From the IMG/VR virus record IMGVR_UViG_2563366947_000002: a DNA stretch of 64,000 nt; one strand, 5' to 3'. Shown one piece after another: positions 13,754 to 51,584 of the stretch (position 1 is the first letter of the stretch; each line of letters begins with the position of its first letter). The DNA is from a virus. Lineage: Duplodnaviria; Heunggongvirae; Uroviricota; Caudoviricetes. Under the pieces are notes generated by a model. The model had not been told where the DNA came from. It worked only from the letters and a program-made list of their open reading frames with translations, and searched no databases. A program made the position numbers and the translations under genes.

Positions 13754-13771
13754 ATGTTAGAAAACTAATTT
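13754..13771 (+). promoter_or_regulatory. putative repressor operator (17-bp motif copy)
   Basis: ATGTTAGAAAACTAATTT; one of 11 or more related copies. Confidence 0.5.
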
Positions 13772-14343
13772 ATCATTTCAATCTCCATCTGATACAACGC
13801 CATTTCATCGGCATTGTGCCGTATGAAATCTGCTTTTCCGCCTATTTTTCCATCAGCATGAACAGGGACCAGCCAGGGATATTGTTCTCGGACCTCGGCT
13901 GGCGCTGCGTACTGGTGGTGCCATTTACACAAAGGGAGGACATATTTATGCGCGTTCTCTGCCGTTCTCCCGAAGATATGGTGCAGGGATACTACTGGGC
14001 TATGTTGCCCGTGAATATGGCAGGCAATGCAGGGGAGAGTACCGATAGCGGTCTGTATCCGGCGTTCATCGGCTGTGAGTGATCTGCCCTTCAGGCCGCG
14101 TGACGTGCGTGTTTTTTTGGACGGAGCGGATACAGCTTTCTCTTTTCTCCGCTGGTCATATTGCTTTGCTTTTTCAATTTTTTTTTGCCGATATTCAGGC
14201 GATGCGGCTTTTTCTCTCGCTCGCTGCTGCTGGCGTTGAGCTTGTTGAAGGCGCTTTGCCCTTTGTTCCTCTCGCCAGGCTGGGTCAGCCAATTTTTGCA
14301 TGGCTTTTTGTCTCTGTTTCTCCCAATAACTCTGTTTCTGCAT
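13765..14343 (-). CDS. Ref-like HNH endonuclease with basic low-complexity N-terminus
   Basis: 192 aa; K/R/Q-rich N-terminal 90 aa then CIACHIHGQHSPVVSLHHIFGRTAENAHKYVLPLCKWHHQ HNH motif. Confidence 0.5.
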   Translation of the reverse strand: MQKQSYWEKQRQKAMQKLADPAWREEQRAKRLQQAQRQQQRAREKAASPEYRQKKIEKAKQYDQRRKEKAVSAPSKKTRTSRGLKGRSLTADERRIQTAIGTLPCIACHIHGQHSPVVSLHHIFGRTAENAHKYVLPLCKWHHQYAAPAEVREQYPWLVPVHADGKIGGKADFIRHNADEMALYQMEIEMIN

Positions 14344-14391
14344 GATGGCTGCCTCTTACTTATCAGCGATTTTTTTATGATTGATCAATAT

Positions 14392-14425
14392 CGTTAGATA
14401 ATCAAAATTGATTTTCTAACACAAA
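14392..14425. promoter_or_regulatory. putative operator pair (inverted) in divergent promoter region
   Basis: CGTTAGATAATCAAAATTGATTTTCTAACACAAA; two motif copies head-to-head. Confidence 0.5.
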
Positions 14426-14615
14426 ACATTAATATCTTCGCTGATAACTGTTTGGAGGACATGATGCTTATAGCTTTAAGTGCGATCCACCAGCCATCTG
14501 TGAACGAGATCGGTCTGTTCTATGTGCTGTTTTTCGGGGCGTTGGCGCTACTTGAACTTGGTATTGAGCTTTTTGCCGTGCTGATGTTTTGCGTCACGAT
14601 GCTGGGGAAATTTTG

Positions 14616-15239
14616 ATGGTGAAACGTGTTTTGAAAATTTACATCGCGGGGCCGATGACTGGTTATCCAGATTACAACCGTGCGGCGTTTGATGCGAAAG
14701 CGAGCGAGCTGATGGCTGAAGGGCATATCGTTCTGAATCCAGCTGTGTTACCTGGTGGCCTTTGTCAGAGTGAATACATGGATATTTGCCTGGCAATGAT
14801 GCGTTCTGCTGATGCGATCTATCTGCTTAAGGGATGGGATGTGTCCGCAGGAGCACGTGCAGAACACGCTCTGGCTGAAAAACTGGGGTTGACGGTAATT
14901 TATGAAGCACCATCTGACACAGATTGCAGAATGGCAGCGCATCTTTACCGTGAACTGGTCGATGCGTTACGTGATGTTGCTATTGAATGTCACGGCACGG
15001 ATCAGCTTCGCGCCCGCTTAAGCAATACCCTTTCCAGTTACCTGTCTTTAGCTGAAGGATACAACCTCCGGCAGCGGAGAATGGTCAAATTAATCACGCG
15101 TTTATCTCAATCCCTGGCAAATGCCGAACCAACTAATCCGCTACCTAATGACGCAATGAATTATCTGAAGTCATGCGGCGTTGTTTCTGAAGATGCAGTT
15201 CGTTTTGTGGAGTTTATGTCTCAGAGGATGTCGGCGTGA
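14616..15239 (+). CDS. nucleoside 2-deoxyribosyltransferase-like (DUF4406-like) protein
   Basis: KIYIAGPMTGYPDYN Rossmann-like N-terminus; ORF track starts at TTG 14589, ATG at 14616 has SD. Confidence 0.45.
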   Translation: MVKRVLKIYIAGPMTGYPDYNRAAFDAKASELMAEGHIVLNPAVLPGGLCQSEYMDICLAMMRSADAIYLLKGWDVSAGARAEHALAEKLGLTVIYEAPSDTDCRMAAHLYRELVDALRDVAIECHGTDQLRARLSNTLSSYLSLAEGYNLRQRRMVKLITRLSQSLANAEPTNPLPNDAMNYLKSCGVVSEDAVRFVEFMSQRMSA

Positions 15240-15553
15240 GCTGGCGGGGGTGGGGAAGGGCAGGAATCATGATACTCCGCCAGTGCGCCGGAACTATGAC
15301 GGTCGAGAGTATTGGGAAGCTGATCGGTCGTACCGGTGATGCCGTCAGGACTAAAGCGCGAGAGCTTGGGATCAGCATGATTCTGAAAGGTGACTTTCAC
15401 CAGTCAGCCAAATACCGGCAGAGCGATATAGAGCTGGCGCGGCAGCTTCATCAGTGTGGCGTTCCCCGCCGTGAGATCGCAGAAAAACTCGAAATGCCCC
15501 TGGGCATGATTAATCAGTACGTTTATTTCGAAAGGAGAGTGTATGAAGTCTGA
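15236..15553 (+). CDS. putative HTH DNA-binding protein
   Basis: 105-aa ORF; start uncertain. Confidence 0.35.
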
Positions 15554-15902
15554 AGGTTTAACGCCCGCACAACTGGCAGAGCGTAACGCTGAATTACCCA
15601 GGATTACCCAGGAAAAAGCCTTCCACATACTCGAACGATTAGAAACGCTCGCTACGGAGGAGGATATATCCCCGGAGAAACTGGTTGAGTTCAGCCGTGT
15701 GATATTGCGTCGCAAGAACGATATGGAGCGGCTGACATCTGGCGCTCCATCCTTATCAGTCAGTCCAGCGCTTTATTGCAGCTTCTGCAACAAATCCCAG
15801 CACACCGTTAAAAAGTTAATTGCTGGGGACGCCGTTTTCATCTGCGACGAGTGTGTGGATGCGTGCAACAACGTTATCCGGGAAGAGGACTTAAGAAAAT
15901 GA
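15543..15902 (+). CDS. ClpX N-terminal zinc-binding-domain (ZBD) homologue, standalone
   Basis: C-terminal [40 protein letters not shown] closely matches E. coli ClpX residues about 12-50 (C4 zinc ribbon); no AAA+ domain follows. Confidence 0.7.
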
Positions 15903-15978
15903 ATGACGAATTTGACCGCTTTGAATTTTAACGGGGCGCACCGTCGCCCCGCATGGGAGGGGGATACGATGAAAAAAG

Positions 15979-16269
15979 ATGAGGCAGAATCCAATGAATA
16001 TCGACACGACAATAACGATCGATACGCTCCTAAATTCCGGTCTGGCACTTCTCGGTTGGTTTTACATCATGTTCAGTGCGGGGAAGTGGGCGGCCTCTGT
16101 TTTTCTAAAGCAGTGGGGAAAGCGCCGCAAACAGGAAAAACGCCAGAAAGCGTTGGAGGCGTTCTATGACGCATTTGAACTTAGCCGCATTGAACCAGGC
16201 ACAACAGCCAGGATAGCGACAAAAGGCGACCTGATGATAGTGATGTTCAGACAGGAGAAAACCAAATGA
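15979..16269 (+). CDS. small membrane protein
   Basis: 96-aa ORF with hydrophobic N-terminal helix. Confidence 0.35.
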   Translation: MRQNPMNIDTTITIDTLLNSGLALLGWFYIMFSAGKWAASVFLKQWGKRRKQEKRQKALEAFYDAFELSRIEPGTTARIATKGDLMIVMFRQEKTK

Positions 16270-16490
16270 CAGAACAGACGATGACAAATCGCGAACTTGT
16301 TGATGCCGCGATTGAACTTGCTGGCGATTTTTATTCCATGATGGGGTACACGCATCGCCCAGGCTTCAAATATTGGGAGTCTCCGCACCCGCAAGAGCAA
16401 CGGGTATTTCAAATGGCCTGTCGCGCTTTTGAAGTTATTCGCGGTTCTGATGTGATGGACGCGGTTGCTGATTTGGAGGATGAAGAGTGA
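16266..16490 (+). CDS. hypothetical protein
   Basis: 74-aa ORF, 4-bp overlaps with neighbours. Confidence 0.35.
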   Translation: MTEQTMTNRELVDAAIELAGDFYSMMGYTHRPGFKYWESPHPQEQRVFQMACRAFEVIRGSDVMDAVADLEDEE

Positions 16491-16798
16491 ACACAATTAA
16501 AGAAATGCCGGTAGAACGTGATGAATATGGCTGCTGGACACATCCGGAGTATGAAAAGTTTTGCGCAGGTCGTGAATATATATCCACTGAGGAATTTGAC
16601 GCCTGGATGAAGGAAAATAATCTTCAGTGGACTATTCGCAGTATGGATGAAGATGATTTTGATCTGGACGCAGCTGGTCCCGATATTGCCGTCTGGGAAC
16701 CGGAGCGACCAGAGGGTGAAGGCTGGTTTGTTGGCTCTATTCATGACACTGAAGATGGTCCAGTTTGTATCTGGCTGCGGGAGAAGGTTGCCGCATGA
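16487..16798 (+). CDS. hypothetical protein
   Basis: 103-aa ORF, stop overlaps start of phosphatase gene (ATGA). Confidence 0.4.
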
Positions 16799-17487
16799 TC
16801 CAGGCTCTGCATGAAGTGAATTTATATAGCCGTATTGATGGTTCAGGCTACAGAAACATATGGGTTGTTGGTGATTTGCACGGTTGCTACACCCTACTTA
16901 TGAATGAACTCCATCGTGTGGATTTTGACCCGGCGCAGGATTTACTGATATCGGTCGGCGACCTTATCGATCGCGGTACTGAAAATGTCGAATGTCTGGA
17001 ACTATTGCAGATGCCCTGGTTCAGGGCAGTGATGGGGAACCATGAGCGGCTGATGATTGATGCGTTAAGTCCAGATGGCAACGTGAATAACTGGCTAATG
17101 AATGGCGGACAATGGTTCTTCATGCTGGACACTGATCAGGAAATATTAGCCTGGGCGCTGGTGGAGCTGGTAAAGCGTCTGCCCTATATCATTGAGTTGA
17201 ACACCGGGCATGAAACTATCGTTATAGCCCATGCCGACTATCCAGGTGGAGAGTACCAGTTCGGTAAGGATGTGTCGCTTTTTGATGTTGTCTGGTCGCG
17301 CAGTCGCGTCGGTGATTCGATAGATGGCATTGGTGGAGAAATCACAGGCGCAGATCGCTTTATCTTTGGGCACACACCGGTACGAAGACCAAAAGCATAC
17401 TGGAATCAGCACTACATAGACACGGGCGCGGTTTTTTGCGGAAATCTGACGCTAATGCAGGTGAAGGGAGGGCAGCTTAAAGTCTGA
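16795..17487 (+). CDS. Ser/Thr protein phosphatase, lambda PPase family
   Basis: [49 protein letters not shown] motifs align along full length of lambda phosphatase. Confidence 0.85.
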
Positions 17488-17511
17488 TCAAATCATTTAC
17501 GCACTCAAAAT

Positions 17512-17545
17512 ATGTTAGAACATTGATTTTAGTTTTCTAACATAT
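17512..17545. promoter_or_regulatory. putative operator pair (inverted)
   Basis: ATGTTAGAACATTGATTTTAGTTTTCTAACATAT upstream of 17585 gene. Confidence 0.5.
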
Positions 17546-17584
17546 TATTTTACCGCTCGGAACAAAACAGAGTCGGTATACATT

Positions 17585-18580
17585 ATGAGTGCAATAATCA
17601 CACCTCATTTCGTAAACGGAGCTGGTGTGGCTGTCTTTCCGGTAGACAAGCCCACCAGTAACTACATTGGCGCAGGTCGCCGTTTCATTATCTCCCCACT
17701 TCCGCGCGAACAGGCTGAAAACACGCCAGATGGCGTAGTGGATCTGAATTATTCGCTGGTTGCCAACCAGTCTCTGAAACCGTTTTTTCAAAGCGAGCGC
17801 GTATTTAACGCGTTGGGCGGTGAAGATTCGCTTGTTCATTGGGTAAGTTCCAATATCCACGATTGCCAGGCGCACGATAAGCGCGATTGCAGCCACCAGC
17901 TAACCACTCATTTCTATAACGGCTCTGCCGTTCGCCTGTGCTGGAAGCATGATGCGGAATACATGATGAAGGGGTACAGCAAGCTGGACGACCAGTTATC
18001 CCTGAATCGTGCCAACTGGGTTATGAACTGGGCTGCGAGCGAGTTAAAACTACCGCCAGAACGCGATCTGAGCATGGTTGAACTCACTTTTTGGGCCATT
18101 CGCCGGAATCTGAAAGATGAGCTGCCAGATGAAGCCGGTCGCATTGCATTTTGTCAGCCAAAAAATGAAATCCCTACCGGTACGCTGAAAGAATCAGATA
18201 TCACCTGGGAGCACAGTACCCGCGAGCTGGTGGACATAACCGCAGAGCAGATCGTCAACCTGTCTGTAGATGAGGATTCCGGCCTGCTTTATATGCGCCG
18301 ACCAAAAGCGGTCCTCGGTAAAAGCCCGGCTTATCTCCGGTTTGTGGTTTCTCGTCCGTGTATCGGATGCGGTGGCAAAGTTAACCACCCGTTCATGTAC
18401 CGCGCCCGCTCGTTAAACGAACACGACCGCTGGGCTGTTCCTCTTTGCGATGACTGCGCCAGAAGCGCAGAAAACGATGTCCGGGCATGGGAAAAAGCAC
18501 ATGGCATACGCCTTTACGTAGCCGCTAACCAGCTTTTTGACTTCGCCATCGAGCGCGGAGTGATCACTTTCAATAACTGA
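17585..18580 (+). CDS. hypothetical protein with C-terminal Cys-rich region
   Basis: 331-aa ORF; CIGCGG...CDDC possible zinc site. Confidence 0.4.
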   Translation: MSAIITPHFVNGAGVAVFPVDKPTSNYIGAGRRFIISPLPREQAENTPDGVVDLNYSLVANQSLKPFFQSERVFNALGGEDSLVHWVSSNIHDCQAHDKRDCSHQLTTHFYNGSAVRLCWKHDAEYMMKGYSKLDDQLSLNRANWVMNWAASELKLPPERDLSMVELTFWAIRRNLKDELPDEAGRIAFCQPKNEIPTGTLKESDITWEHSTRELVDITAEQIVNLSVDEDSGLLYMRRPKAVLGKSPAYLRFVVSRPCIGCGGKVNHPFMYRARSLNEHDRWAVPLCDDCARSAENDVRAWEKAHGIRLYVAANQLFDFAIERGVITFNN

Positions 18581-18584
18581 TGAG

Positions 18585-19920: not shown

Positions 19921-20099
19921 AGCTAAGATGCTTATCTCCCGTGTATACAGACTTTGCTATCCCAGCCAGTGGTTGAGAGTTAGCAATCGTCGTGTGGTGT
20001 TGTTTTCATTTTCTGGAATTGCCAGAGAGGGAGTCCGAGATAAGGGCAGCGCGGCGCAAAACCGCTGGAAAAACCACCTGCGCACTAAAGGAGACTGAT

Positions 20100-20315
20100 A
20101 TGGCTATTGCCGCAAGTTACACCATGCATCTCTACTGTGATTGTCGCCAGTGTACAAATGGTAAATATCAAACGCCAGACTTCGGTGAGTATATCGGTAC
20201 GTCATGGGCTGGCTGTGCAAAAGAGGCGCGCAAGGATGGCTGGCGAATAAGCGCCGACAAAACGCGTGCTTTTGCGCCAGGTCATAAAATTTTGAGGATC
20301 AACAAAGGAGAGTGA
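20100..20315 (+). CDS. small Cys-rich protein
   Basis: ATG with AGGAG SD; MAIAASYTMHLYCDCRQCTNGKY...; ORF track 19992..20315. Confidence 0.35.
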   Translation: MAIAASYTMHLYCDCRQCTNGKYQTPDFGEYIGTSWAGCAKEARKDGWRISADKTRAFAPGHKILRINKGE

Positions 20316-20316
20316 T

Positions 20317-26557: not shown

Positions 26558-26577
26558 ATGTGTTAGAAATTTAATTT
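26558..26577 (+). promoter_or_regulatory. putative repressor operator
   Basis: ATGTGTTAGAAATTTAATTT overlapping cre stop codon. Confidence 0.5.
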
Positions 26578-27755: not shown

Positions 27756-27789
27756 CTAACTTTAAATAATGCCAATTATTTAAAGTTAT
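27756..27789. other. lox-like recombination site (13-8-13)
   Basis: CTAACTTTAAATA-ATGCCAAT-TATTTAAAGTTAT; outer ATAACTT/AAGTTAT as loxP, inner arm bases and spacer differ; 150 bp upstream of cre. Confidence 0.75.
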
Positions 27790-27884
27790 AAAATGCCGAT
27801 TTTTTTTAATCCATCATAGATTGATGATGACCAGTAACACGTTGCCTTCATGGTCTTTAATTAGCGAAGTGTGGTTTCTACGGT

Positions 27885-27903
27885 TGGTTTTCTAAAATTG
27901 ATG
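27885..27903 (-). promoter_or_regulatory. weak operator-like motif
   Basis: TTGGTTTTCTAAAATTGATG, partial match to operator consensus. Confidence 0.3.
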
Positions 27904-27969: not shown

Positions 27970-27986
27970 ATGTTAGAAAACTAAAT
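27970..27986 (+). promoter_or_regulatory. putative repressor operator
   Basis: ATGTTAGAAAACTAAAT, 12 bp upstream of 27999 start. Confidence 0.5.
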
Positions 27987-27998: not shown

Positions 27999-29036
27999 AT
28001 GAGTAAGAAGTCGATCGAGAAAGAGTACAAACGGTTCCTGCAAACCGCTGAACGGTGGAAAGAGCTGGTGGTCGCAAACTCTGTTTTCCATGATACCAGT
28101 TATGCTGGCGAGGAATTCCGCCATGTTGCATTAACGCATGACCAAAACATATTAGAAGAAGCTGAAAAATGTCTTGCTGAATGGAAAGCCTTCGTTGACA
28201 TGTGCCGCGATGCCGACGGCAAAGCGTCGAACATTGTTGAGTCTGTATATTCTCCGATCCCATTCATCATTGAGGACACCAATCAAAGCACGCATGTCGT
28301 TGTGCAAAGCGCTACAACAACACGTACATTTACACGTGAACAATTGCTAAAAAAATACGACAAAATCATAAAGAAAAGCCTGAAAAATAGGGTTTTTTCT
28401 CAAATCGTAGGTGCTCTTGAAGAAGAACAGCGCTTCTTTGAAGCTGAGCCTGAAGGCGAGATCTACCGGGCGCGTAAAGAGGCATATACAGATGTTGTGC
28501 TGACAACAAACATCGAAGGCAGCAATGCCCTTTCTCGCTTTAGAGTTGGCGCACATGGCGCATTGGTTTTCGCAAGACAACCGAAGACAACGATCCCCGT
28601 TGTCAATAATGTTGGTGAACGCCGGAGCATTACAATTTATTCTGGCGTCGAATCGGTACCTTGCAGCCTTCTCGGCGATTTTAACTTATATCGTGTTCGT
28701 GACCTGGAAAAACACCAGCCAAGCTACGTTGCGAAGTCGTACATCTTAAGGAACATCGATATTCGCAATGAAAGCCTTAAGCAGAAATCCGCTAAGATGC
28801 TGGAGGATGCCGATCCGGCTATTCGCCATATCATTGAGCGTAAGATACGTACATCACGTGAAGCAATGGCAAGGCTGGATAAAATGGATCTGGAATTGTT
28901 AGACGTAATGATGGCCTCTGGAGACGACCTGACCGGCATTAAACTGAATGAAGCTCGTAAAAAATACGGCAAAGCAATCGAAGAACGTTACGGATACACA
29001 TTCCCCCAAACGCAGTACGCCGCGAAGCTCTGGTAA
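27999..29036 (+). CDS. putative immunity repressor (positional analogue of P1 c1; not recognised by sequence)
   Basis: 345-aa ORF between lox and convergent pacB-like gene, preceded by operator copies, the position c1 occupies in P1. Confidence 0.35.
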   Translation: MSKKSIEKEYKRFLQTAERWKELVVANSVFHDTSYAGEEFRHVALTHDQNILEEAEKCLAEWKAFVDMCRDADGKASNIVESVYSPIPFIIEDTNQSTHVVVQSATTTRTFTREQLLKKYDKIIKKSLKNRVFSQIVGALEEEQRFFEAEPEGEIYRARKEAYTDVVLTTNIEGSNALSRFRVGAHGALVFARQPKTTIPVVNNVGERRSITIYSGVESVPCSLLGDFNLYRVRDLEKHQPSYVAKSYILRNIDIRNESLKQKSAKMLEDADPAIRHIIERKIRTSREAMARLDKMDLELLDVMMASGDDLTGIKLNEARKKYGKAIEERYGYTFPQTQYAAKLW

Positions 29037-32325: not shown

Positions 32326-32400
32326 TAATCCCCCGGGCAGGAAATGACCGAGGGGATGATAATGAGAATGTTAAAACTGTATAGACTGGCAAAAAGATGA

Positions 32401-32420
32401 TTGTATTAGAAAATTAATAC
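32401..32420 (+). promoter_or_regulatory. putative repressor operator (variant)
   Basis: TTGTATTAGAAAATTAATAC upstream of 32325 start. Confidence 0.4.
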
Positions 32421-32433
32421 CAAATATCTAATA

Positions 32434-32826
32434 CTACCAGCGAGACAAACGAACAACATGTTTCACTTTTGCGATCCACTGTCCGCGATAACTATTGATT
32501 ACGGCCTGTGCCAGCTTCAAATTGGCTTCAAAATCAGCCTTACTACCATCAGACTCCACCAGCATTCCGCCATCTATTTCTGGTAAACATAGATAATCCT
32601 GCTCAACCTGCAGCGGCATTGATGGCTCTCTGAATGGCGTTACTTGCTCTGCTTTCCAACGAAATCTAACCCTCATCCCCCTGGTGGTCATTACTAGATA
32701 GCCTGTTATAGTGCTTTTATGGCCCACATCAGTACGCGTGGCATTGCATGACACGATCTTACAGTTAGCGATAGACCACTCAATATTGGTGGCCTGTTGA
32801 GTGCTTAATTTGGTAGTCCCGTACAT
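32434..32826 (-). CDS. hypothetical protein
   Basis: 130-aa ORF. Confidence 0.4.
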   Translation of the reverse strand: MYGTTKLSTQQATNIEWSIANCKIVSCNATRTDVGHKSTITGYLVMTTRGMRVRFRWKAEQVTPFREPSMPLQVEQDYLCLPEIDGGMLVESDGSKADFEANLKLAQAVINSYRGQWIAKVKHVVRLSRW

Positions 32827-33855: not shown

Positions 33856-33931
33856 TGGTGGCCCCTACCGGACTTGAACCGGTGACCGTGCGATTATGAG
33901 TCGCCAGCTCTAACCACTGAGCTAAGGGGCC
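33856..33931 (-). tRNA. tRNA with CAU anticodon (Ile2/lysidine-type or Met)
   Basis: 76 nt with encoded CCA; 5' GGCCCCTTAGCTCAGTGGTTAGAGC and anticodon loop CTCATAA closely resemble E. coli ileX. Confidence 0.85.
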
Positions 33932-35468: not shown

Positions 35469-35544
35469 TGGTGCCGATTAACGGACTCGAACCGCTGACA
35501 TCCTGCTTACAAGGCAGGCGCTCTACCAACTGAGCTAAACCGGC
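35469..35544 (-). tRNA. tRNA-Thr (anticodon UGU)
   Basis: 76 nt; GCCGGTTTAGCTCAGTTGGTAGAGC..., anticodon loop CTTGTAA, T-loop TTCGAGT, encoded CCA. Confidence 0.85.
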
Positions 35545-35546
35545 AT

Positions 35547-35622
35547 TGGCGATGATGGATGGATTTGAACCATCGACCCGTTGATTAACAGTCAACCGCT
35601 CTAACCGCTGAGCTACACCATC
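35547..35622 (-). tRNA. tRNA-Asn (anticodon GUU)
   Basis: 76 nt; anticodon stem GTTGA/TCAAC, loop CTGTTAA, T-arm GATGG-TTCAAAT-CCATC, encoded CCA. Confidence 0.85.
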
Positions 35623-36838: not shown

Positions 36839-36857
36839 TTTTAGATTTCTAACACAT
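36839..36857 (-). promoter_or_regulatory. putative repressor operator
   Basis: TTTTAGATTTCTAACACAT (reverse orientation of consensus). Confidence 0.45.
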
Positions 36858-38086: not shown

Positions 38087-38106
38087 AAATTAGTTTTCTA
38101 ACATAT
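38087..38106 (-). promoter_or_regulatory. putative repressor operator
   Basis: AAATTAGTTTTCTAACATAT. Confidence 0.5.
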
Positions 38107-38689: not shown

Positions 38690-39184
38690 TTAATCAAGAC
38701 AAACATACTCCGTGATAGCTTTTATGGCTTCAGCGGCACTGCGCGCCTCAAAGCAGTAGTAACCGGCTTCTGTGAGGCGAGTCATCCAGACGAGTTGTTC
38801 GGGAGTCAGGCGATTTCTCCCATGTTTCATCTCAATGCGCATTCCGTGGTATCCCCCACAAGCAAGGTCTATAGAAAGATCGGGATATCCCTTCTTTTGG
38901 CCCTCTGCCACCATTTTTATTGCCGTCCTTATGCCTCGCAGGCCACCGTTTGGAGTGGCGTGAGTATGCTCATACACATAACGCATATTGCGATACATCC
39001 AGTCCAGGACGCGAACCTGCTCGTAATGCTCATGGTTCCTTTTGATTAGATCTGGGTTTTTCTCCAGTTCTCTAAGAGCTGCGGCATGTGGGGATGTTTC
39101 AGAATATTCACTGCGACGCCTTCTCTTTCGCGCTATTTTTCTAACACACCCATTGATAGTAAATATGCGAAATAATAACAACAA
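38690..39184 (-). CDS. VRR-NUC domain nuclease-like protein
   Basis: EQVRVLDW ... GYPDLSIDLACGGYHGMRIEMKHGRNRLTPEQ pattern of VRR-NUC; TTG start in track; operator motif inside first 20 codons so true start uncertain. Confidence 0.55.
   Translation of the reverse strand: MLLLFRIFTINGCVRKIARKRRRRSEYSETSPHAAALRELEKNPDLIKRNHEHYEQVRVLDWMYRNMRYVYEHTHATPNGGLRGIRTAIKMVAEGQKKGYPDLSIDLACGGYHGMRIEMKHGRNRLTPEQLVWMTRLTEAGYYCFEARSAAEAIKAITEYVCLD
39134..39150 (-). promoter_or_regulatory. putative repressor operator
   Basis: TATTTTTCTAACACACC. Confidence 0.4.
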
Positions 39185-39320
39185 CGTTAGATTTGTAAAA
39201 CAAGAGAGATACTACTCAAGGATGGTCTATATGCAACAGGTCGGATTTGCTTTTAGAGTAAAGAGCGACCTTAATCAACAAGGAGGGTAAATCGCATGGC
39301 ATTTACCCAACCTGTTATTT

Positions 39321-46000: not shown

Positions 46001-46891
46001 TTTGAGCGTTGCATCATCCGTGTCGGGGATCATCTCCAGGAAGGTTTCCGGGTGTTTACGCAATACCCATACGTCCACCACGGTATCTGTACCGGATTCG
46101 CTGAACGTACCAGAAGGCATACGATGTGCGCCCAAAAATTCCGCTTTACGGCTGACTTTATCGCGCAATTTTTTGTATTTCGTACCATCGGTCATGCCAT
46201 TCGGCACCACCAATACAATTAGTCCACCAGGCTTAACCTTGTCGATCGTGCGCAACACAAAGTAATTGCCAACGTTCTTCTCGTTTGCATATGCCGGATC
46301 AAGCCCGGCAACGCCGGAACGCCCTTCACCAAACGGTACGTTACCAACAGCGTGGTCATACATTGCGTCTTTCGCCGCCAGTGCCTCAAACGCCCCGATA
46401 TTCACATCGTCTTCCGGGTGCAAAAGCTGGTTTATTCGACCAGAAATCGGAGACAGTTCGGCGCTGGTCATTATCATGCCCTGCCGTTTTGTCTCCTGGA
46501 AAATACCTGTGCCCGCTGATGGTTCCAGTACGTGCCCGCCATCAATACCGTAGTCAGCAAACAGATCCCATATACCTTCAGCCATAAACTGTGGCGTGTA
46601 GTATTCGTATTGGCTGCCCTCACCATCTGTCAGGCCACCTTCACCGGTATACCCGGCAAGAATCTGACGTTGTTCGTCAGTTAATTTCGCCCCATCGAAG
46701 CCGGGCGGAAGGGAATTAAGAAGATTTACTGCGGCGTTGTTTGCTGCCCGGCGTGTTTTCTGAATACTGACGCCATCGGCTTTCCTGACGCCAAAGGTCG
46801 CAACAGCACGTAATTTATGCAACCGACTAACAATCTCAATCAGTTCGCCTAAGCTGGAGGCTTCACTGATTGAATGAAGTAGTTTGTCCAA
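40055..46891 (-). CDS. darB: giant N6-adenine methyltransferase / SF2 helicase fusion protein (DarB-like antirestriction protein)
   Basis: About 2,278 aa from TTG at 46891 (GAGGGGG SD); MTase motif I VLEPSAGTGIF and motif IV GNVPFGEG near N-terminus; helicase motifs GLGKTT, VIADEGHNYRN, MLTATPLVNSP, QRNGRGAR; ORF-track N-terminal extension to 47080 runs into the IS. Confidence 0.6.
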   Translation of the reverse strand: MDKLLHSISEASSLGELIEIVSRLHKLRAVATFGVRKADGVSIQKTRRAANNAAVNLLNSLPPGFDGAKLTDEQRQILAGYTGEGGLTDGEGSQYEYYTPQFMAEGIWDLFADYGIDGGHVLEPSAGTGIFQETKRQGMIMTSAELSPISGRINQLLHPEDDVNIGAFEALAAKDAMYDHAVGNVPFGEGRSGVAGLDPAYANEKNVGNYFVLRTIDKVKPGGLIVLVVPNGMTDGTKYKKLRDKVSRKAEFLGAHRMPSGTFSESGTDTVVDVWVLRKHPETFLEMIPDTDDATLKSANVLWDTFLKGKWFTTEGKRFVYGDMERTSFRNTLVVKKDGRVSNESMKTALSRRFDSRINWDLLGVTTQAWQGAKVGDKRLVGGIWHEFDGLKWVKDTTTKSSALDVSRYGVSTFGDLQIAFQSTNGILALSWDQISAIASDYPSVVSDEVAAMIRFADKQREKDRERVMRGALIGQLINKALDLRNLGANVDDKLADASRLAAAEVAKYGPPHAIKLNGLAEAGAKNWMTFTGNVKQDGSTSDLLAGRLDVTDGAAGIDFTRPEQVIAHLFSDVALNPITLGDFREAFAGELPEDDDAALEFLAKFDDIAIDGYGCLLPMDRATSGDIATKTALLMGWRDASTGEQKANFERQLAKIEEKRIFTPLNKVTVNLNARWLDRRLIKEFLAEQGYDEFKYTEPDLKVVDGILVSPDDYEGKDGVFTGYQLRTVNGKNGNEFKKANNKDGFLNQLENYLNGVKPRGQNANEYLDKIAQLEVSFNDWLRTHPQADQIAREYNDAFNGFIPFTHSDAPLGLEGLSGKRIPLTYQNEEVRRLSEDGRGIMGFGTGLGKTTTALALEAYNFETGRTKRTCIVVPKAVYQNWYHEAQSFYSADAFANMMFIGLDEVRDDSGNILTAPVLDENGEPRLDSNGQPLTRNVVKESSSAVIVQRMNMIPSSNWRTVIMTKEQFASIPLREKTIEENSQQAVFNAVEMGRLDLASGKHRDAQKKNKIKDQAANTGTTKKQNIPYFEDMNFDSVIADEGHNYRNSFNAGREAGQLAYLPNPAVSKMARDMAVKAAYMMKRNNGRGVVMLTATPLVNSPIDAFNMLSTVIPQEEWMRMGIITPDDFVRVFGKTATVQVQKISGEVEEKQGLVGFQNLDGLRGIFHRWATLKTAADVGATVKIPDIIENTLQIPMTGEQETAYEELRKRAQELSRNDELTVDENGHITNDKPDDFIFSIIRDMDKVAIDPDLYASAITFQFPVELADQVKAIADALPKVAGGKVADDVDEAEEDGAGGLVSTRTSKVVKTAFSEHPTHVEIRASIELEAEILKAIAAAGIDMQQVSHPIPPKYAALIENLREGLKNGKQIVFIDEKAQHQKLRRIIASALQMPEQEIGIINATTVSQAGGIKLKKVNKPTEPTPNKNGEYKEGAWETYYSKLAQYEDYLSAKNDAGLEGMEGIAADYNEGRTRIIICNKKAEVGINLHIGTTDIHHLTLPWTPASIDQRNGRGARVGSPQEKVNVHYYCGKGTFDDFRLDTLKRKKDWIKMVMTSDMSEIANGDADDADERAIMLAANPEERRAIMARQAQEREERLKLKAQREANNALDIYLKAANAAGKDIGMMETELKSAMEQIEYYQRNLDDLIKAGTNRNGQKYALEQLSSYRKRARVLRFAITRAKDADTIMKRSRGDVERAIKSGVLDISIDVIQNPQEYMRTDKNILLHKGSYYRAVIDDRETTAIVRVEKIDGEKAQYLCRIAWLDRASRYARAPGSIVTLPFDSVIEAVTFEEGVAESRATAARGVQCHQLSTILTRDQFYDAIRNGVMNVIAGKPGNAWGGGSAIKYWAYRTDDGQIALSSAYDGVIGQKIGRASDIAPERWIYPDGNDEALKREVAKIQASDNPLNIVDGEGFLQALYGYDYIQGMQAWGAQATMDDVAQEFENWMAGRGLSGRSLNKVTSEDILSLFRKPSGEGLESFWRTVLAYRLFQGRMKAFSNIDDIERMFNQVKIAKIKAKIEKTRSALVAWRDALFEQYKSLSDADGWAALEQLANNGVDGAKLAIVQADNPLESPAAQWIKVGAVINAFDEKHISKDDFADAVSVNRLVEMATRRARELKDGDYVNELPDTLKSSTWQDYVSLKNGGATESEIAERLEQAESKREEQAAVAEARADEAANDDYIIVVNDKPIRAKARVRGRWWSVSEDVGAVYLIADQPGSSTIRNAKDAIKKIGGRFWNFEANPVADVNFDRPAWMVSTRYSVDELRKIIADAA

Positions 46892-46899
46892 AGGATTAC

Positions 46900-48340
46900 C
46901 CCCTCTAAACCGTAAAAATTCCGCTATGCGGTACGGTTGAGAGGGTATGGAGAATGTTATTTTCAGCGAAAACCGCCGAGAACCCTCGCCCAGTGCTGGC
47001 GGGGAGGAACGGCGGAAAAGCCCAAAGGGCTTTAAAAAAATCATTACGGTGTTAGCATAAAAGCCTGTATCAATGAGCAATGACTATGTTAAGAGCGACA
47101 AAAGTACGTATATACCCCACTCCTGAACAGGCTGAATTTCTCAACGCCCAGTTCGGTGCGGTGCGTTTTGCGTACAACAAAGCTCTTCACATCAAAAAAC
47201 ATGCTTACCAGCGACACGGAGTAAATTTAAGTCCGCGTAACGATCTGAAACCGTTGTTGTCTGTGGCCAAAAAGTCCCGCAGATATGCCTGGCTCAAAGA
47301 GTTTGATTCAATGGCATTGCAACAGGCGGTAATTAATCTTGATGTGGCATTTTCCAACTTTTTTAATCCGAAGCTGAAAGCCCGGCTTCCGACTTTCAAG
47401 AGAAAGAACGGCTGGCAATCCAGCTATCACTGTGTCGGGATTAAGGTTCTGGATAATGCCATCAAAATCCCCAAACTTTCCCCGATTGAGGCACGCCTTC
47501 ATCGTGAACTTCATGGAAAGCTGAAAAGCATCACTATCACTCGTTCTGCGACGGGGAAATATTATGCGTCGCTACTCTGCGATGATGGCATGGAAACGCC
47601 AGCCAGACCTTCCATGATATCCCGCGTGACGGGGATAGATATGGGATTATCGCACTATGCCATCAAGTCCGATGGGGTAAAAGTTGCTAACCCTCGCCAT
47701 CTCATCAATGCCAGCCGTAATCTGCGACGCAAACAAAAAGCGTTATCTCGCAAGCAAAAGGGAAGCGCAAATCGCAAAAAGGCCAGAATCCGTCTGGCAG
47801 CGTTACACGAACGGGTAGCCAGTGCCCGTGCCGATTTCCAGCACAAGTTATCTCGCGCAATTGTTGACGAAAACCAAGCGGTAATTGTGGAGACACTGAA
47901 AAAAGCCAACATGATGAAAAACCACAATCTGGCGAGAGCGATAGGTGATGCCAGCTGGCACAGTTTCATCGCAAAGCTGGAGTACAAGGCGATGGAAAAA
48001 GGCGTTCACCTGGTAAAACTCGACCAATGGTTTGCCAGTTCGAAAACGTGCCATTGTTGTGGTTACAAAATGCCGGAAATGCCACTTCATAAACGCATCT
48101 GGCGATGCCCGGAATGCAGTATTGAACATGATCGCGACATCAATGCGGCACTCAATATCCGGCAAAAAGGAATACTGGAACTACAGGCGGCGGGACTCGT
48201 CGTTTCTGCCCATGGAGGCCAGCGTAAATCCGTCATACAGACGGTTGCGGCCTAAGAAGTGGGAAGCCTCGCCCGACAGGGCGGGGAGCAGTCACGGGGA
48301 CGATACTACCGTCAAAATCACATACTCCCCATAGTTTGCC
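46900..48340 (+). mobile_element. IS200/IS605-family insertion sequence carrying tnpB only; boundaries approximate
   Basis: Intact tnpB flanked by subterminal imperfect hairpins (CGCC...GGCG near 46986-47003 and CGCCC-gaca-GGGCG near 48270-48287); no tnpA. Confidence 0.6.
47080..48255 (+). CDS. tnpB: TnpB (OrfB) RNA-guided endonuclease-type transposase accessory protein
   Basis: 391 aa; MLRATKVRIYPTPEQ N-terminus, RuvC-like GIDMG, zinc finger CHCCGY...CPEC, C-terminal HDRDINAALNI. Confidence 0.85.
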   Translation: MTMLRATKVRIYPTPEQAEFLNAQFGAVRFAYNKALHIKKHAYQRHGVNLSPRNDLKPLLSVAKKSRRYAWLKEFDSMALQQAVINLDVAFSNFFNPKLKARLPTFKRKNGWQSSYHCVGIKVLDNAIKIPKLSPIEARLHRELHGKLKSITITRSATGKYYASLLCDDGMETPARPSMISRVTGIDMGLSHYAIKSDGVKVANPRHLINASRNLRRKQKALSRKQKGSANRKKARIRLAALHERVASARADFQHKLSRAIVDENQAVIVETLKKANMMKNHNLARAIGDASWHSFIAKLEYKAMEKGVHLVKLDQWFASSKTCHCCGYKMPEMPLHKRIWRCPECSIEHDRDINAALNIRQKGILELQAAGLVVSAHGGQRKSVIQTVAA

Positions 48341-48370
48341 TACTTATTAACCCATGACCGGGAGAAAAAT

Positions 48371-48856
48371 ATGGCAAACATTGAACCTCGCTGGCTAATT
48401 GAAGCCCGTAAGCACATTGGCCTGACTGAAATAAAAGGCGCTAAACACAACCCTGAAATCGTTCAGTTCTGGCGCGACATCAAGCGCGGCGGAATTAAAG
48501 ACGATGAAACGCCGTGGTGCGCAGCATTTGTCGGTGCAATGCTGGAACGTGTAGGCATCCGCTCAACAAGATTTGAGTCGGCAAAATCCTATCTGGATTG
48601 GGGCGAGAAATTAGATACACCGGCATACGGATGTATCGTTGTATTTACCCGCGTAGGCGGTGGGCACGTAGGCTTCGTTGTCGGACGCCGCGCCAATGGC
48701 GATCTGCTTGTCCTGGGTGGGAACCAGGGGGATGCGGTTAATATTCGCGCATTCCCAACATCAAGAGTGTCTGGCTATCGCTGGCCTGCTGGCGAACCAC
48801 GCAATACCGCTCTGTTACCAGTCGGAGACGCAGCAACCTCAACTAATGAGGCATGA
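48371..48856 (+). CDS. NlpC/P60- or CHAP-like putative peptidoglycan hydrolase (tentative)
   Basis: 161 aa; TPWCAAFVGAML cysteine and GGGHVGFVVG histidine contexts. Confidence 0.4.
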   Translation: MANIEPRWLIEARKHIGLTEIKGAKHNPEIVQFWRDIKRGGIKDDETPWCAAFVGAMLERVGIRSTRFESAKSYLDWGEKLDTPAYGCIVVFTRVGGGHVGFVVGRRANGDLLVLGGNQGDAVNIRAFPTSRVSGYRWPAGEPRNTALLPVGDAATSTNEA

Positions 48857-48879
48857 AAAAGCCCCGGCCAGGCCGGGGC
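48856..48879 (-). terminator. minus-strand terminator hairpin
   Basis: GCCCCGGCC-a-GGCCGGGGC followed on minus strand by TTTTT. Confidence 0.5.
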
Positions 48880-48887
48880 ATCACGCT

Positions 48888-49088
48888 TCAAGTCACCATC
48901 CAATCATTACCGATTATATCAGCCGTCGATAAATCAACTTCCCGGATCTGGAGTCCATTAATACAAAACCATCCGGTAGTAGAGTAATTATCAGGCCAGG
49001 CCCATACACCAACACTCCATGCTTTACGGCGGCACACTTCAGCCTGTCCTTCCCTGATTTTTTTTACCGCCTGCATGATGTCCATCAC
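48888..49088 (-). CDS. small DUF2829-like protein (split C-terminal module of antirepressor paralogue)
   Basis: 66 aa; AEVCRRKAWSVGVWAWPDNY ... NDWMVT aligns with C-terminus of 11797..12738 product. Confidence 0.4.
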   Translation of the reverse strand: MMDIMQAVKKIREGQAEVCRRKAWSVGVWAWPDNYSTTGWFCINGLQIREVDLSTADIIGNDWMVT

Positions 49089-49792
49089 TCACCTCCCCAA
49101 CCGATCACCTGGAATTGCCCCATTTTGGGGTGATACCAGCGTTTTCCTCGGTGTTCAGCCTCCGACATCATCCGGTTAAAAGCATTCATGAAGGGAGATA
49201 AGGCCACGATGGAACGACGCGACAATACCCCCTCTGGAGTTAAAAACTCATGTGTATCGGTGGGAATCCGGTAAGCGTTGACAAGGTTGCGACATTTGGC
49301 TTCAGTCAGGCCGCATTTCGCCGCCAGCTGGCGGTAGCCAATGTAACCATCTGGCATATTGCCCTTCTTGATTTGCTCGACGGTTTCAGCGACCTGGCTA
49401 ACCTTTGACTCAACAGCATGAAGCCGCTTTTGCTGCTGAACTGCATTTGCAGCCATTGCGGCGATCATCTCTATTTCGGTCAACGGCTGGCGTACTTGTT
49501 CTTCCAGTTCGCGCCAGCGGTCCACCAGCCGGGCGGTGAATTCCGGAGAGAGCTGCGCAACGACAATGATACTGTCACGCTTGCCTTGCTCGCCTTCGAA
49601 GACGTAGTGTGAATTTTTAACTTTAAATCCTAAGTTATTGATATTTTCGGAAACCTCCATTGGAGGAAGTGGAATAACACCTGATTTACTCAAGCGTTCA
49701 ATAGTGCGTTTAACGTTATCCGGGCGACTTCCCACCAGCTCCGCGATCTCAATGCTGGTCATTGATGGCTTTTCAAGAATGCAGATATCCAT
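49085..49792 (-). CDS. antirepressor-like protein (paralogue of 11797..12738)
   Basis: ATGA overlap with icd-like ORF; MTSIEIAELVGSR... and central region near-identical to first copy. Confidence 0.45.
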   Translation of the reverse strand: MDICILEKPSMTSIEIAELVGSRPDNVKRTIERLSKSGVIPLPPMEVSENINNLGFKVKNSHYVFEGEQGKRDSIIVVAQLSPEFTARLVDRWRELEEQVRQPLTEIEMIAAMAANAVQQQKRLHAVESKVSQVAETVEQIKKGNMPDGYIGYRQLAAKCGLTEAKCRNLVNAYRIPTDTHEFLTPEGVLSRRSIVALSPFMNAFNRMMSEAEHRGKRWYHPKMGQFQVIGWGGE

Positions 49793-50015
49793 CAATGTGC
49801 CTCCGCAATGCCGGGATTGGTAATATTGCGATACCAAGGATTAGTGTTTGGTTGTGGGGAAGTAGAGAAACGACCAGTAAGAACACCATACTGATCAGGG
49901 ATCAGAGAACGGGCTTCTTTTTCGGTTGCGGCAATTGCGAAGTGATCGCAATGTTTTTGCAGGGAGTGGAAACGCCAGATAAATTCCGGGCGCGAGCAAG
50001 GATTGGCATTAACCA
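49792..50015 (-). CDS. Icd-like small protein (paralogue)
   Basis: ATG at 50015 with GAGG SD; MVNANPCSRPEFIWRF...; ORF track extends into leader. Confidence 0.4.
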
Positions 50016-50360
50016 TAGTTACGGCCTCATTCGTAGGTTTAACAACCTGCGCCCCCGCTGCTAAACGGGTGGCAGGACGTGACGGGGTTAGCAGACTGGC
50101 ACGAATGAAACCAGCAGGCCGAAGCCTCCCCATCACGCCCCACCATAATTCGGGCGTAACGTGGTGTTACGGACACAAAAATACCGCAATATCGGATATC
50201 TGCGGTTGTCCGCATTCGTATTCAGGCTGCTAAACCCGGTCGCAGAATTTGCTACGACGGCATGAATATAAGCCTGAAAACATGGAAGATCAACTAAAAA
50301 TTTCAGCAATGGATGACTTCAGTCGATGATGCAGATCATACATTCCGATTTAGAAACAGC

Positions 50361-50381
50361 AAATTAATTTTCTAACACAAA
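50361..50381 (-). promoter_or_regulatory. putative repressor operator
   Basis: AAATTAATTTTCTAACACAAA. Confidence 0.5.
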
Positions 50382-50431
50382 TCATCGAGCGAGCATTTTC
50401 CGATCATTGGGATGCTTTGTAGACACACAGG

Positions 50432-51394
50432 TCATCCCCTAAATCCCGCAGGGATTGACCAATCCTCCCGGTCAAATTCAGACCGATAGCCACGCTGTTT
50501 CATCAGGTCAAAGGCTTCACCAATGGTTACACACCCCTGGGAGCCAGAATAATCCATTGAGAAATCCAGGGCACTGGATTGTTTAGGCTTATTCACTGCG
50601 GTAGCGGCACTACGTATCCATGCAAATTTTTTTGCCAGCTTTTCAGCGGTACGATACAGAGCCTGCCGTTTTGCGTGCCCCTCGTCTGAACGACGCTTTG
50701 CAGCTCTCGCTTTTGCCGCCGCCAGGCAGTGGTTGGTATGTTCTTCCCTGATTACTGTTTTTTTATCCAGTCCCCCATTATCCGCTTGAGTACTATCTGC
50801 TGGTGAAGCCTTTGGCTGAACCGCGCATGATCTTTCTCTTCTTTTGGCTATAGAGTGACTCTTATTTTCTATTGGCTGTTCATTTTGAACATGGGGGGAC
50901 TTGTTCAATTTGAACAGGGGGTTCCCAGTTTCAAAAAAATAACGAACCTTTGAAATCAACTGCTTAACCAGTTTTGTGGCGTTGGCAAATTTGATGCCCT
51001 GCTTACCCCCTATCTCCATTGCTACATGAATGAAGTGGAGAAATTGTGTCGTAAACCGATATACGTTACACACCTGGGCATTGTTATTCGCTACCTGATG
51101 TTGCTTAACAAGCATTCCGCACTTCGTCGCTTCAGTAAATGCCCGGCGCACAGTAGAAATACTGCGCCCTGTAATCTCAGACATATCAGCATATGAGCGA
51201 CGGATCATGTATTCATCGGTAGCCCCTGCAAGGTTGGCGAACTCGGCAATAATGGCGCTATGTGAAGGGGAAAGAAGACCGCTATGACGAGCAAAAAAAC
51301 TCAACTGATGACCTTTGATTTTTTTGTGGTATTCAGTGTTGTTTTTATACTCAGAAGTGTTGAAAGTTACTGAAACTGAATTTAAAATATTCAC
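50432..51394 (-). CDS. winged-HTH DNA-binding protein (possible RepL-like replication function, tentative)
   Basis: 320 aa; MSEITGRSISTVRRAFTEATKCGML HTH; basic C-terminal half. Confidence 0.3.
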   Translation of the reverse strand: MNILNSVSVTFNTSEYKNNTEYHKKIKGHQLSFFARHSGLLSPSHSAIIAEFANLAGATDEYMIRRSYADMSEITGRSISTVRRAFTEATKCGMLVKQHQVANNNAQVCNVYRFTTQFLHFIHVAMEIGGKQGIKFANATKLVKQLISKVRYFFETGNPLFKLNKSPHVQNEQPIENKSHSIAKRRERSCAVQPKASPADSTQADNGGLDKKTVIREEHTNHCLAAAKARAAKRRSDEGHAKRQALYRTAEKLAKKFAWIRSAATAVNKPKQSSALDFSMDYSGSQGCVTIGEAFDLMKQRGYRSEFDREDWSIPAGFRG

Positions 51395-51456
51395 CAGATA
51401 GTTCCGTGAAAAAATCTATCTACCGTATAAATCTATGCCAGTGGATTTATACACCA

Positions 51457-51489
51457 AAAAGCCGCTTCTCAGCGGCTTTTGCTTTTTTT
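51457..51489. terminator. bidirectional intrinsic terminator
   Basis: AAAAGCCGCT-tctc-AGCGGCTTTT followed by GCTTTTTTT. Confidence 0.6.
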
Positions 51490-51566
51490 GGCAATCGCTA
51501 CCGGAGCAGTGACCGCGATCCTACTCGATCACATCGGACAGGATCAACAGTGTACATAAATACACT

Positions 51567-51584
51567 ATGTTAGAAATTTAATTT
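51567..51584 (+). promoter_or_regulatory. putative repressor operator
   Basis: ATGTTAGAAATTTAATTT. Confidence 0.5.

Follow-up and report, generated by a model that had tools for sequence, protein, structure and literature searches.

A Dispersed Asymmetric Motif as the Probable Operator of a Divergent C1 Repressor in a Plasmid Prophage of the Phage D6 Type

Results

As judged from sequence comparison, the element in the window (the whole stretch of 64,000 nucleotides that was analyzed) is a P1-like plasmid prophage of the phage D6 type. Identity to D6 (reference records MF356679 / NC_050154 and AY753669) amounted to 91–99.9% across most of the window length. The window differs from D6 in an additional IS605-family tnpB gene and in a different cargo segment, the ORFs of which gave no defence-system match with PADLOC. 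Two immI-like modules are present in the D6-type element, and 149 plasmid records contain a D6-type C1. In the deposited D6 records c1 is annotated and operators are not. The searchable full-text literature yielded no relevant match for the D6 operator motif; an earlier description is possible in the dedicated D6 papers. These reportedly include the D6 genome paper of Gilcrease and Casjens (2018, Virology 515:203) and the paper on D6 immC by Sauer and McDermott (2004, NAR 32:6086).

The gene for the presumed motif-binding protein is the following.

27999..29036, plus strand: c1, encoding the D6-type C1 repressor (345 amino acids), presumed motif-binding protein

In the preliminary description, which was made from the sequence alone, the recombination site next to this gene had been taken for lox; it is rox, the site of the Dre recombinase. 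The window C1 shared 99.7% identity with D6 C1 and, as determined by BLASTP, 20% identity over 242 amino acids with P1 C1 (E 9e-8). Both the window C1 and P1 C1 matched phrog_1678, with E values of 1.9e-170 and 1.3e-139, respectively. In precomputed annotations, C1 homologues carry PF27008 (Phage_P7_repressor_C1); the window C1 itself had no match in Pfam-A. Because it scored 25.5 bits with the NCBIfam equivalog model, far under the cutoff of 500, it was classified as a member of the family and not as an equivalog. D6-type C1 is distinguished from P1 C1 by an additional helical tail, about 100 amino acids long. Among 1.84 billion representatives, the C1 family accounted for only 84 clusters at 50% identity. 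On the strength of these comparisons, the product of 27999–29036 is a remote yet real homologue of P1 C1.

A repeated motif had been proposed for at least 11 dispersed sites, and a search of the window with a 21-nt weight matrix bore this out. The search returned 12 strong sites with scores of 19.8–33.9, clearly set apart from the next best match at 6.9, and there were 3–4 weak or half copies beyond these. The consensus of the strong copies is (R)TGTTAGAAA-W-Y-Y-AA-W-W-T, with a length of 17–18 bp. As evident from a count matrix of 38 pooled sites, the motif is asymmetric: it combines an invariant TGTTAGAAA head with a distinct AT-rich tail, WYYAAWWT, and has no internal dyad. All coordinates listed in the preliminary description held to within 1–2 nt; the copies at 14391, 32418, 27882 and 39131 turned out to be weak or half sites, and the site at 7970–7986 had been missed.

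Candidate operators in the window (position, strand, location, matrix score or mode of detection):
7970..7986, minus strand: site between the divergent mat and ORF8006; score 25.6
13754..13770, plus strand: site heading the second c4-icd-antirepressor module, over the ref stop codon; perfect query match
14391..14422: pair between the divergent genes ref and orf88, strong copy 14406–14422 (minus strand), weak copy 14391–14407 (plus strand); matrix
17512..17543: divalent site upstream of pdcB, two overlapping inverted copies, 17512–17528 (plus strand) and 17527–17543 (minus strand); scores 27.4 and 28.1
26560..26576, plus strand: site at the dre 3' end, heading the orf117-dut-isaA operon; score 31.1
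27882..27898, minus strand: weak second site upstream of c1; score 0.6
27970..27986, plus strand: site at the c1 promoter; score 28.1
32403..32434: site upstream of lpa (late-gene activator), strong copy 32403–32419 (plus strand), weak partner 32418–34 (minus strand); matrix
36839..36855, minus strand: site heading the leftward tRNA-tciA-tciB operon; score 25.2
38088..38104, minus strand: site directly upstream of pmgS; perfect query match
39131..39147, minus strand: weak or half site before pmgM, GTGTTAGAAAAAT head and degenerate tail; score 3.7
50362..50378, minus strand: site upstream of the c4-icd-antirepressor (immI) operon; score 31.9
51567..51583, plus strand: site upstream of repL (lytic replication); score 29.3

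The weak or half copies at 14391–14407 (plus strand), 32418–34, 27882–27898 and 39131–39147 (all minus strand) combine a well-matching TTAGAAA head with a degenerate tail. When up to three mismatches were allowed, ATGTTAGAAAACTAATT matched 10 times versus 0.24 expected, and 10 matches were reached in none of 100 shuffles. Markov simulations restricted to noncoding DNA gave an expectation of 0.05 matches versus 9 observed. An unbiased search for noncoding 13-mers ranked the motif first in the window; the identical search, applied to P1 as a positive control, ranked the established C1 operator first. On the gene map none of the 12 strong sites falls within a gene, apart from an overlap of two of them with a stop codon. 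With a mechanical ORF mask, the centres of 11 of the 12 were noncoding, compared with 12.5% of the window DNA (binomial about 1e-10). Intergenic DNA is somewhat AT-richer than the rest, and the motif is itself AT-rich. No copy was present upstream of the late (virion or lysis) operons lydA, prt, darB, gp26 and gp7.

Wherever copies form inverted pairs, the geometry is fixed: all 9 real pairs from four elements have an identical offset of 15 nt, as seen for the pdcB pair 17512/17527. The ref/orf88 pair is fully divalent in the relatives L007 and L010.

Site 27970 closely follows a conserved promoter, TTTACT-17-TAAATT, and lies 13 nt ahead of the ATG of c1. It is invariant among elements with 68–100% identical C1, amid diverging flanks. 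The TTTTCTAA core of the weak site 27882, about 80 bp upstream, is invariant in a four-element alignment. The position of site 27970 points to possible autoregulation of c1. Upstream of lpa, the site just precedes a TATACA-16-TATCAT promoter, and in a five-element alignment its TCTAA core is invariant and its flanks diverge; compensatory changes were not seen in the hairpin before lpa. Site 13754 overlaps TTGAAA-16-TAACAT on the minus strand and has a C4 RNA (13008–13095) downstream. Site 50362 is likewise followed by a C4 RNA (50065–50150) and by an a1b1 element (50219–50271), and site 51567 is flanked by the start of repL (51394) and the stop of pro. The positions of 50362, 13754, 32403 and 51567 thus suggest that C1 may control c4-icd-ant, lpa and repL.

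Site 7970 overlaps a promoter-like TTGATG-16-TAACAT for ORF 8006-8629. Its otherwise invariant core is broken by a G to T change (TGTTATAAA), and the site may therefore be weaker. The position at the dre 3' end is also occupied by the motif in L007, in L010 and in pK91 (L006), a resistance plasmid with a prophage fragment only, which was used solely for the c1 and dre sites. Site 36839 is followed by a TTGATT-17-TAGAAT promoter (36822 to 36794), and the tRNA-Asn, Thr, Ser and CAT genes beside it are on the minus strand. Site 38088 is found 8 nt before the pmgS start, after a terminator-like hairpin (38172–38147). A strong TG-extended promoter, TTTACA-16-TATTAT (39199 to 39172), precedes the weak site 39131; the pmgM-equivalent sites in L007 and L010 score 15.5 and 19.4.

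The promoters named here are consensus matches only, and their overlap with the motif rests on a relaxed scan together with conservation; simple sigma-70 scans gave fewer promoter-like matches than shuffles and supported only some of the sites. Relative to the best promoter matches, the motif is placed upstream of the -35 element, over the -10 element or downstream of +1, and in both orientations. The motif was also considered as part of Lpa-dependent late promoters. This reading was rejected: the late boxes of P1 differ in sequence, and the regions upstream of late operons are devoid of the motif. The P1 late -22 box (AAGTGACT-like, plus -10) was matched once in the window, at 6870.

At least seven window sites match annotated positions of P1 C1 operators, namely those at c1, lpa, repL, c4-icd-ant, both ref ends and tRNA-tci. 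The counterparts of Oc1/Op99, Olpa and OrepL/Op53 are sites 27970, 32403 and 51567, and that of Oc4/Op51 is site 50362, in the same arrangement. The pair 14391..14422 corresponds to Oref, and site 13754 is the positional counterpart of Omat, both overlapping the ref stop. Site 36839 corresponds to Oban, the tRNA-tci gene order being equal to that of the P1 ban operon. Site 38088 is a near-counterpart of OpmgR, the weak site 39131 can be compared with O26, and Odmt is matched in D6 by 64113/64128, just outside the window. Obanab of P1 is annotated as divalent and belongs to the same architecture class as 17512/17527, but its copies are offset by 11 nt and those of the D6-type elements by 15 nt. 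The P1 and D6 types have in common asymmetric operators of 17–18 bp, single or as overlapping tail-to-tail inverted pairs, and more than 10 sites at early or lytic promoters scattered across some 90 kb. They also share a site at c1 itself and the targets lpa, repL, c4-icd-ant, ref and the tRNA-tci operon. In P1, the dispersed C1 operators of this ImmC regulon further include Ossb. Together with the remote homology of C1, these correspondences agree with the likeness to the dispersed asymmetric P1 operators that had been noticed at the outset.

The sequences of the operators differ. The D6-type motif is TGTTAGAAAWYYAAWWT, whereas that of P1 is ATTGCTCTAATAAATTT, as had been stated correctly in the preliminary description; the TTAGA/TCTAA core alone is common to both. 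P1 operators were absent from the window, where the best score with the P1 matrix was 11.7, compared with at least 18 at true P1 sites. Conversely, nothing convincing was found in P1 with the D6 matrix, the best score being 14.2, compared with at least 17.6 for D6 sites. D6 has counterparts of all 12 strong window sites, and 15 sites in its whole genome reach a score of at least 17.6. The mutual absence of the two operator types supports a different immunity specificity, as had been suspected, and sequence comparison thus supports the view that the P1 and D6 systems are heterospecific. The D6 type is also without homologues of P1 Lxc/Bof, Coi, KilA and Ban; for Lxc (Bof) and Coi, tblastn searches at E values up to 0.01 gave no match in the window or D6. 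Since it lacks Lxc/Bof and Coi, which are helpers in P1, the D6-type circuit cannot follow that of P1 in every detail.

The motif changed in steps with C1. It was kept where C1 is 68–80% identical; at 51% identity the head was kept and the tail changed; at about 30% the motif becomes AAAGCCTTAGAAT, and at 20% (P1) it is ATTGCTCTAATAAATTT. At corresponding genomic positions the type of the motif follows that of C1, and the dre 3'-end position carries a third type in Citrobacter L009 and Leclercia L008. A site at the c1 promoter was present in every element examined. Elements with a differing motif also differ in most other genes, and the co-variation therefore does not single out C1.

Discussion

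We infer that the D6-type C1 repressor, the product of 27999–29036, binds the motif, which is very probably its operator. In a lysogen, C1 would bind each asymmetric site of about 18 bp (head TGTTAGAAA, tail WYYAAWWT), presumably as a monomer, and would occupy single sites or tail-to-tail pairs at or adjoining sigma-70 promoters. It would thereby block the late-gene activator lpa and the lytic replication gene repL, both c4-icd-antirepressor modules, ref, the tRNA-tci operon and several early operons, and repress c1 itself. Upon loss or inactivation of C1, all targets would be released together. This wiring should be of the P1 immunity type, with repressor and operator co-diverged so that cross-reaction is not expected.

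The sites might instead be bound by another regulator, either an early phage protein (a Rha/Roi-type antirepressor or an HTH protein encoded in the orf88-ppp operon) or a protein of the host. Binding by C1 is itself a prediction, and the elements with a differing motif (L008, L009 and P1) differ in many further genes. We nevertheless consider this improbable: one site lies directly at the c1 promoter in all elements examined, the site positions mirror those of proven P1 C1 operators, and the motif persists in D6-like elements despite varying accessory gene content as well as in pK91, whose prophage fragment includes c1. A slightly smaller chance is given to the motif being a promoter element itself, that is, an early-promoter signature read by RNA polymerase or an activator. 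Read in reverse complement, the head gives TAACAT, which at 13754 and 7970 can function as a -10-like hexamer; TTAGAA, for its part, is similar to a -35 element. A promoter element is, however, hard to reconcile with the two orientations of the motif and its varying placement around the best promoter matches; the overlapping inverted pairs of fixed geometry fit dimer-like occupancy by a protein, and the late-promoter box of P1 is a different sequence found elsewhere, late operons being without the motif. That the motif is a functionless artefact of base composition or of repeats in AT-rich intergenic DNA, conceivable in view of the AT-richness of the motif and, to some extent, of intergenic DNA, is already refuted by the shuffles (10 copies versus 0.24), the noncoding simulations (9 versus 0.05) and the alignment upstream of c1, the motif being conserved at orthologous positions amid diverging flanks.

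The predicted fold of C1 may resemble that of Tus, the replication terminator protein of E. coli; TM-scores are low (0.27–0.32) and the pTM of the model is 0.49. The likeness serves as a lead and does not amount to an assignment. Sequence similarity between C1 and Tus was not found with hhalign, and a search of BFVD with the C1 fold gave no match. Tus-Ter acts in replication fork arrest, whereas transcriptional repression is proposed for C1. It is a tentative and rather doubtful idea that C1 constitutes a small family restricted to phage-plasmids, with a Tus-like fold and TTAGA-core operators whose flanks co-evolve into graded orthogonal pairs (P1, D6, the D6-tail variant and Citrobacter/Leclercia). 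If it holds, the fold would account for the recognition of a long asymmetric site by a monomer. Cre/lox and Dre/rox are orthogonal pairs that are already exploited, and such a C1/operator series would adjoin them.

The C1/operator system of P1 is already known, and the D6-type system is most likely a further, differently specified version of it. The sites outline the likely immunity regulon of D6-like phage-plasmids, which occur widely in E. coli, Salmonella and Shigella and are predicted to be heteroimmune to P1. Annotation, induction studies and curing studies gain a concrete recognition sequence. A second C1-type repressor/operator pair, possibly also a third and a fourth, may be usable orthogonally to P1 C1, and the stepwise divergence of C1, matched by changes of the operator at fixed genomic positions, would provide a natural data set on how a seemingly unusual, monomeric repressor reads DNA.

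Identity and Gene Map of the Window

A 6-kb stretch around the motif matched Escherichia phage D6 (AY753669, MF356679/NC_050154), a P1-like plasmid prophage, at 99.6-99.7% identity and many non-mobilizable E. coli and Salmonella plasmids of ~90 kb at 98.8-99.8%. In BLAST comparison the whole window matched D6 in blocks of 91-99.9% identity, with D6 coordinate 1 (the rox site) at window position 27773. The deposited D6 record names genes after their P1 counterparts (c1, pacAB, lpa, repL, icd, ref, mat, darB, and others) and annotates no operators. Its gene map was carried over to the window by tblastn. Two stretches had no D6 equivalent:

~8006-11400, cargo segment unrelated to D6, replacing simB and neighbors; contains a dCTP deaminase-like gene (9134-9760, minus strand) adjoining a gene for a 357-aa protein
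47080-48255, plus strand, 391-aa ORF between darB and a peptidoglycan hydrolase gene; IS605-family OrfB/TnpB with a Cas12f-like TNB domain

The 357-aa protein had no match in Pfam or PADLOC searches, and no PADLOC defense model matched the cargo segment.

A Repeated Noncoding Motif

With up to three mismatches allowed, 10 copies of the 17-mer from the preliminary description were observed in the window against 0.24 expected. A weight matrix built from these copies found 12 strong sites scoring 19.8-33.9, and everything else scored 6.9 or less. The positions originally listed were all accurate to 1-2 nt and the strong sites among them stood, but 14391 and 32418 (second halves of pairs), 27882, and 39131 proved to be only weak copies, in which the TTAGAAA head is good but the tail degenerate, and a strong site at 7970 had been overlooked. 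On the transferred gene map, all 12 strong sites were intergenic or overlapped only a stop codon (ref, dre). Under a mechanical ORF mask, 11 of 12 site centers were noncoding, although noncoding DNA makes up 12.5% of the window (P ~1e-10). Simulations preserving noncoding composition gave 0.05 expected matches versus 9 observed. Because the sites are noncoding and far exceed this expectation, a compositional artifact, with copies equally frequent inside genes, can be dismissed.

As an unbiased check, each noncoding 13-mer was counted for copies with at most two mismatches. TTAATTTTCTAAC (15 copies), the highest-ranking word of the window, was the motif itself. The same procedure applied to P1 as a positive control returned ATTGCTCTAATAA (16 copies), which is the C1 operator known from experiments and annotated in the P1 record. 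In the D6/P1 phage group, the noncoding word repeated most often is probably the C1 operator. Among 9-mers, the Chi-containing words GCTGGTGG and CCACCAGC were commonest in the window, D6, P1, and D6-like loci.

Pooling of 38 sites (the window plus two relatives) defined an A-rich flank, nine invariant or nearly invariant head positions TGTTAGAAA (35-38 of 38 each), and a tail W-Y-Y-A-A-W-W-T. No internal dyad was present in these sites, and both orientations with respect to the neighboring gene were seen. Paired copies were arranged tail-to-tail with a 15-nt offset in 9/9 real pairs (window, D6, and the related elements L007 and L010), a constancy that points to a fixed geometry, steric or protein-protein. 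The divalent P1 operator Obanab is likewise tail-to-tail, but with an 11-nt offset.

Placement Relative to P1 Operators

P1 operators were taken from the protein_bind features of the P1 record.

Candidate operators and their P1 counterparts
27970, upstream of c1: Oc1 region (P1-matrix matches at P1 94175, 94639, 94722)
32403, directly ahead of the lpa promoter: Olpa (in P1, lying over the -35 of Plpa)
51567, upstream of repL: OrepL
50362, ahead of C4 RNA, icd, and antirepressor (Rfam confirmed the C4 and a1b1 elements): Oc4
14406, upstream of ref: Oref
13754, overlapping the ref stop codon: Omat, likewise over the ref stop
36839, followed by a TTGATT-17-TAGAAT promoter and, on the minus strand, tRNA-Asn, tRNA-Thr, tRNA-Ser, tciA, tciB, and tRNA(CAT): Oban, which heads the identical gene order
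38088 and 39131, preceding pmgS and pmgM: approximately OpmgR and O26
D6 64113/64128, just outside the window, pair upstream of hrdC-dmt: Odmt

No motif copy was found upstream of the late operons (lydA, prt, darB, gp26, gp7), and the P1 late-promoter box differs from the motif in sequence.

Several structural features were noted in these regions:

33856-33931, minus strand, tRNA with CAT anticodon
34917-35003, minus strand, tRNA-Ser (TGA)
35469-35544, minus strand, tRNA-Thr
35547-35622, minus strand, tRNA-Asn
13008-13095, 13140-13218, 50065-50150, and 50219-50271, minus strand, RNAs of immI-like modules
39110-39200, minus strand, region with a strong TTTACA-16-TATTAT promoter (TG extension) that falls within the 5' end of pmgM as annotated
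32326-32356, minus strand, GC-rich stem-loop (CCCCTCGG...CCGGGGG) directly before the lpa start codon, holding the likely Shine-Dalgarno sequence

The tRNAs (ARAGORN, Rfam) and tciA/tciB form one operon downstream of 36839, as in the P1 ban operon; the D6 GenBank record places its three tRNAs on the plus strand, and the CAT tRNA is missing from it. The two immI-like modules are separate. In both, a C4 antisense RNA precedes an icd homologue, and their antirepressors differ; an isrK-like RNA is an additional feature of the first module and the a1b1 target element of the second. For pmgM, a GTG start at ~39110, preceded by AGAAGG, is more plausible than the annotated TTG at 39184.

Conservation at c1 and lpa

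Alignment of c1 upstream regions from elements with C1 100, 80, 70, and 68% identical revealed conserved blocks, namely a -35/-10 pair (TTTACT, TAAATT), the operator together with the ribosome-binding site, and the weak-site core TTTTCTAA, within otherwise diverged DNA. In five elements aligned upstream of lpa, with C1 identities as low as 44%, a TCTAA core, a TATCAT -10, and the stem-loop were kept, the last without compensatory changes.

Change of the Motif with C1

Elements with progressively more distant C1 proteins were sampled.

Motif versions by C1 identity to the window
80, 70, 68% (L010, L007, L006): D6 motif retained, positions unchanged
51% (L011): head retained, tail altered, TGTTAGAAAAATAGATTT
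44% (L012): TGTTAGAAAA still precedes c1; pdcB and lpa have related copies upstream
~30% (Citrobacter L009, Leclercia L008): D6 motif absent; top noncoding word AAAGCCTTAGAAT
20% (P1): ATTGCTCTAATAAATTT

TTAGA was present in every version. P1 had no site by the D6 matrix and the window none by the P1 matrix, in agreement with the earlier proposal of an immunity specificity different from that of P1. Such a parallel change is what repressor-operator co-evolution would predict, with the caveat that the distant elements differ in many genes besides c1.

AAAGCCTTAGAAT is a third repeated noncoding motif, located at D6/P1 operator positions in these P1/D6-like plasmids (L009: 5774, 13613, 18373, 19885, 26214, 29271; L008: 8080, 9477, 24324, 27781). 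In L009 it lies upstream of c1, ref, and rdgC/hrdC and just 3' of a recombinase gene. The most repeated noncoding word of L012, TCACACTTAATAA (7 copies, ~4500-4900, seeds 4505 and 4887), is unrelated to the operator. L006 is S. Typhi pK91, a conjugative multidrug-resistance plasmid whose D6-like prophage fragment (hot to dre, c1, and a truncated pacB) still includes c1 along with two copies of the operator (18556, 19970).

The Candidate Repressor

The gene at 27999-29036 (plus strand) is D6 c1. Its product was only 20% identical to P1 C1, collinear across residues 7-240, and both belong to phrog_1678; homologues of the window protein fall in PF27008 (Phage_P7_repressor_C1), and it fell far short of the NCBIfam equivalog cutoff. 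D6 was the only tblastn match in the phage collection, and a profile search of 1.84 billion representatives yielded just 84 family members. Family conservation spans residues ~5-245; the C-terminal ~100 residues form a helical extension peculiar to the D6 branch.

An AlphaFold2 model (pLDDT 80, pTM 0.49) had significant Foldseek matches in the PDB only to E. coli Tus-Ter complexes (E 2.6e-7 to 8.5e-6, probability 1.00; next match E 0.067). The alignment covered all of Tus with low TM-scores (~0.3), and sequence signal was absent. Tus clamps an asymmetric site as a monomer, which makes the parallel attractive. A Tus-like fold is possible for the modeled C1. No paper in the literature searched linked C1 with Tus.

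Proposed Mechanism

The mechanism is modeled on the established P1 system (notes of the P1 record), reportedly described by Lobocka et al. 2004 (J Bacteriol 186:7032). In the lysogen, C1 would sit on the putative operators and keep the late activator and lytic replication off, together with both antirepressor modules, ref, the tRNA-tci operon, and several early operons; it would also limit its own synthesis. Unlike in P1, no homologues of Lxc/Bof, Coi, KilA, Ban, or Ssb were found; the presence of two immI-like modules and the operator-pair geometry are further differences.

Judged from sequence, the system follows the design of P1 immunity, but with a different and, by prediction, mutually exclusive specificity, in an already sequenced phage. 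The putative operators are described neither in deposited records nor in searchable literature, and an earlier description in the primary D6 papers is possible. Operators of D6's own would be no surprise to a specialist; some value is added by a defined consensus, a regulon map, a graded co-evolution series, and a possible Tus-like fold.
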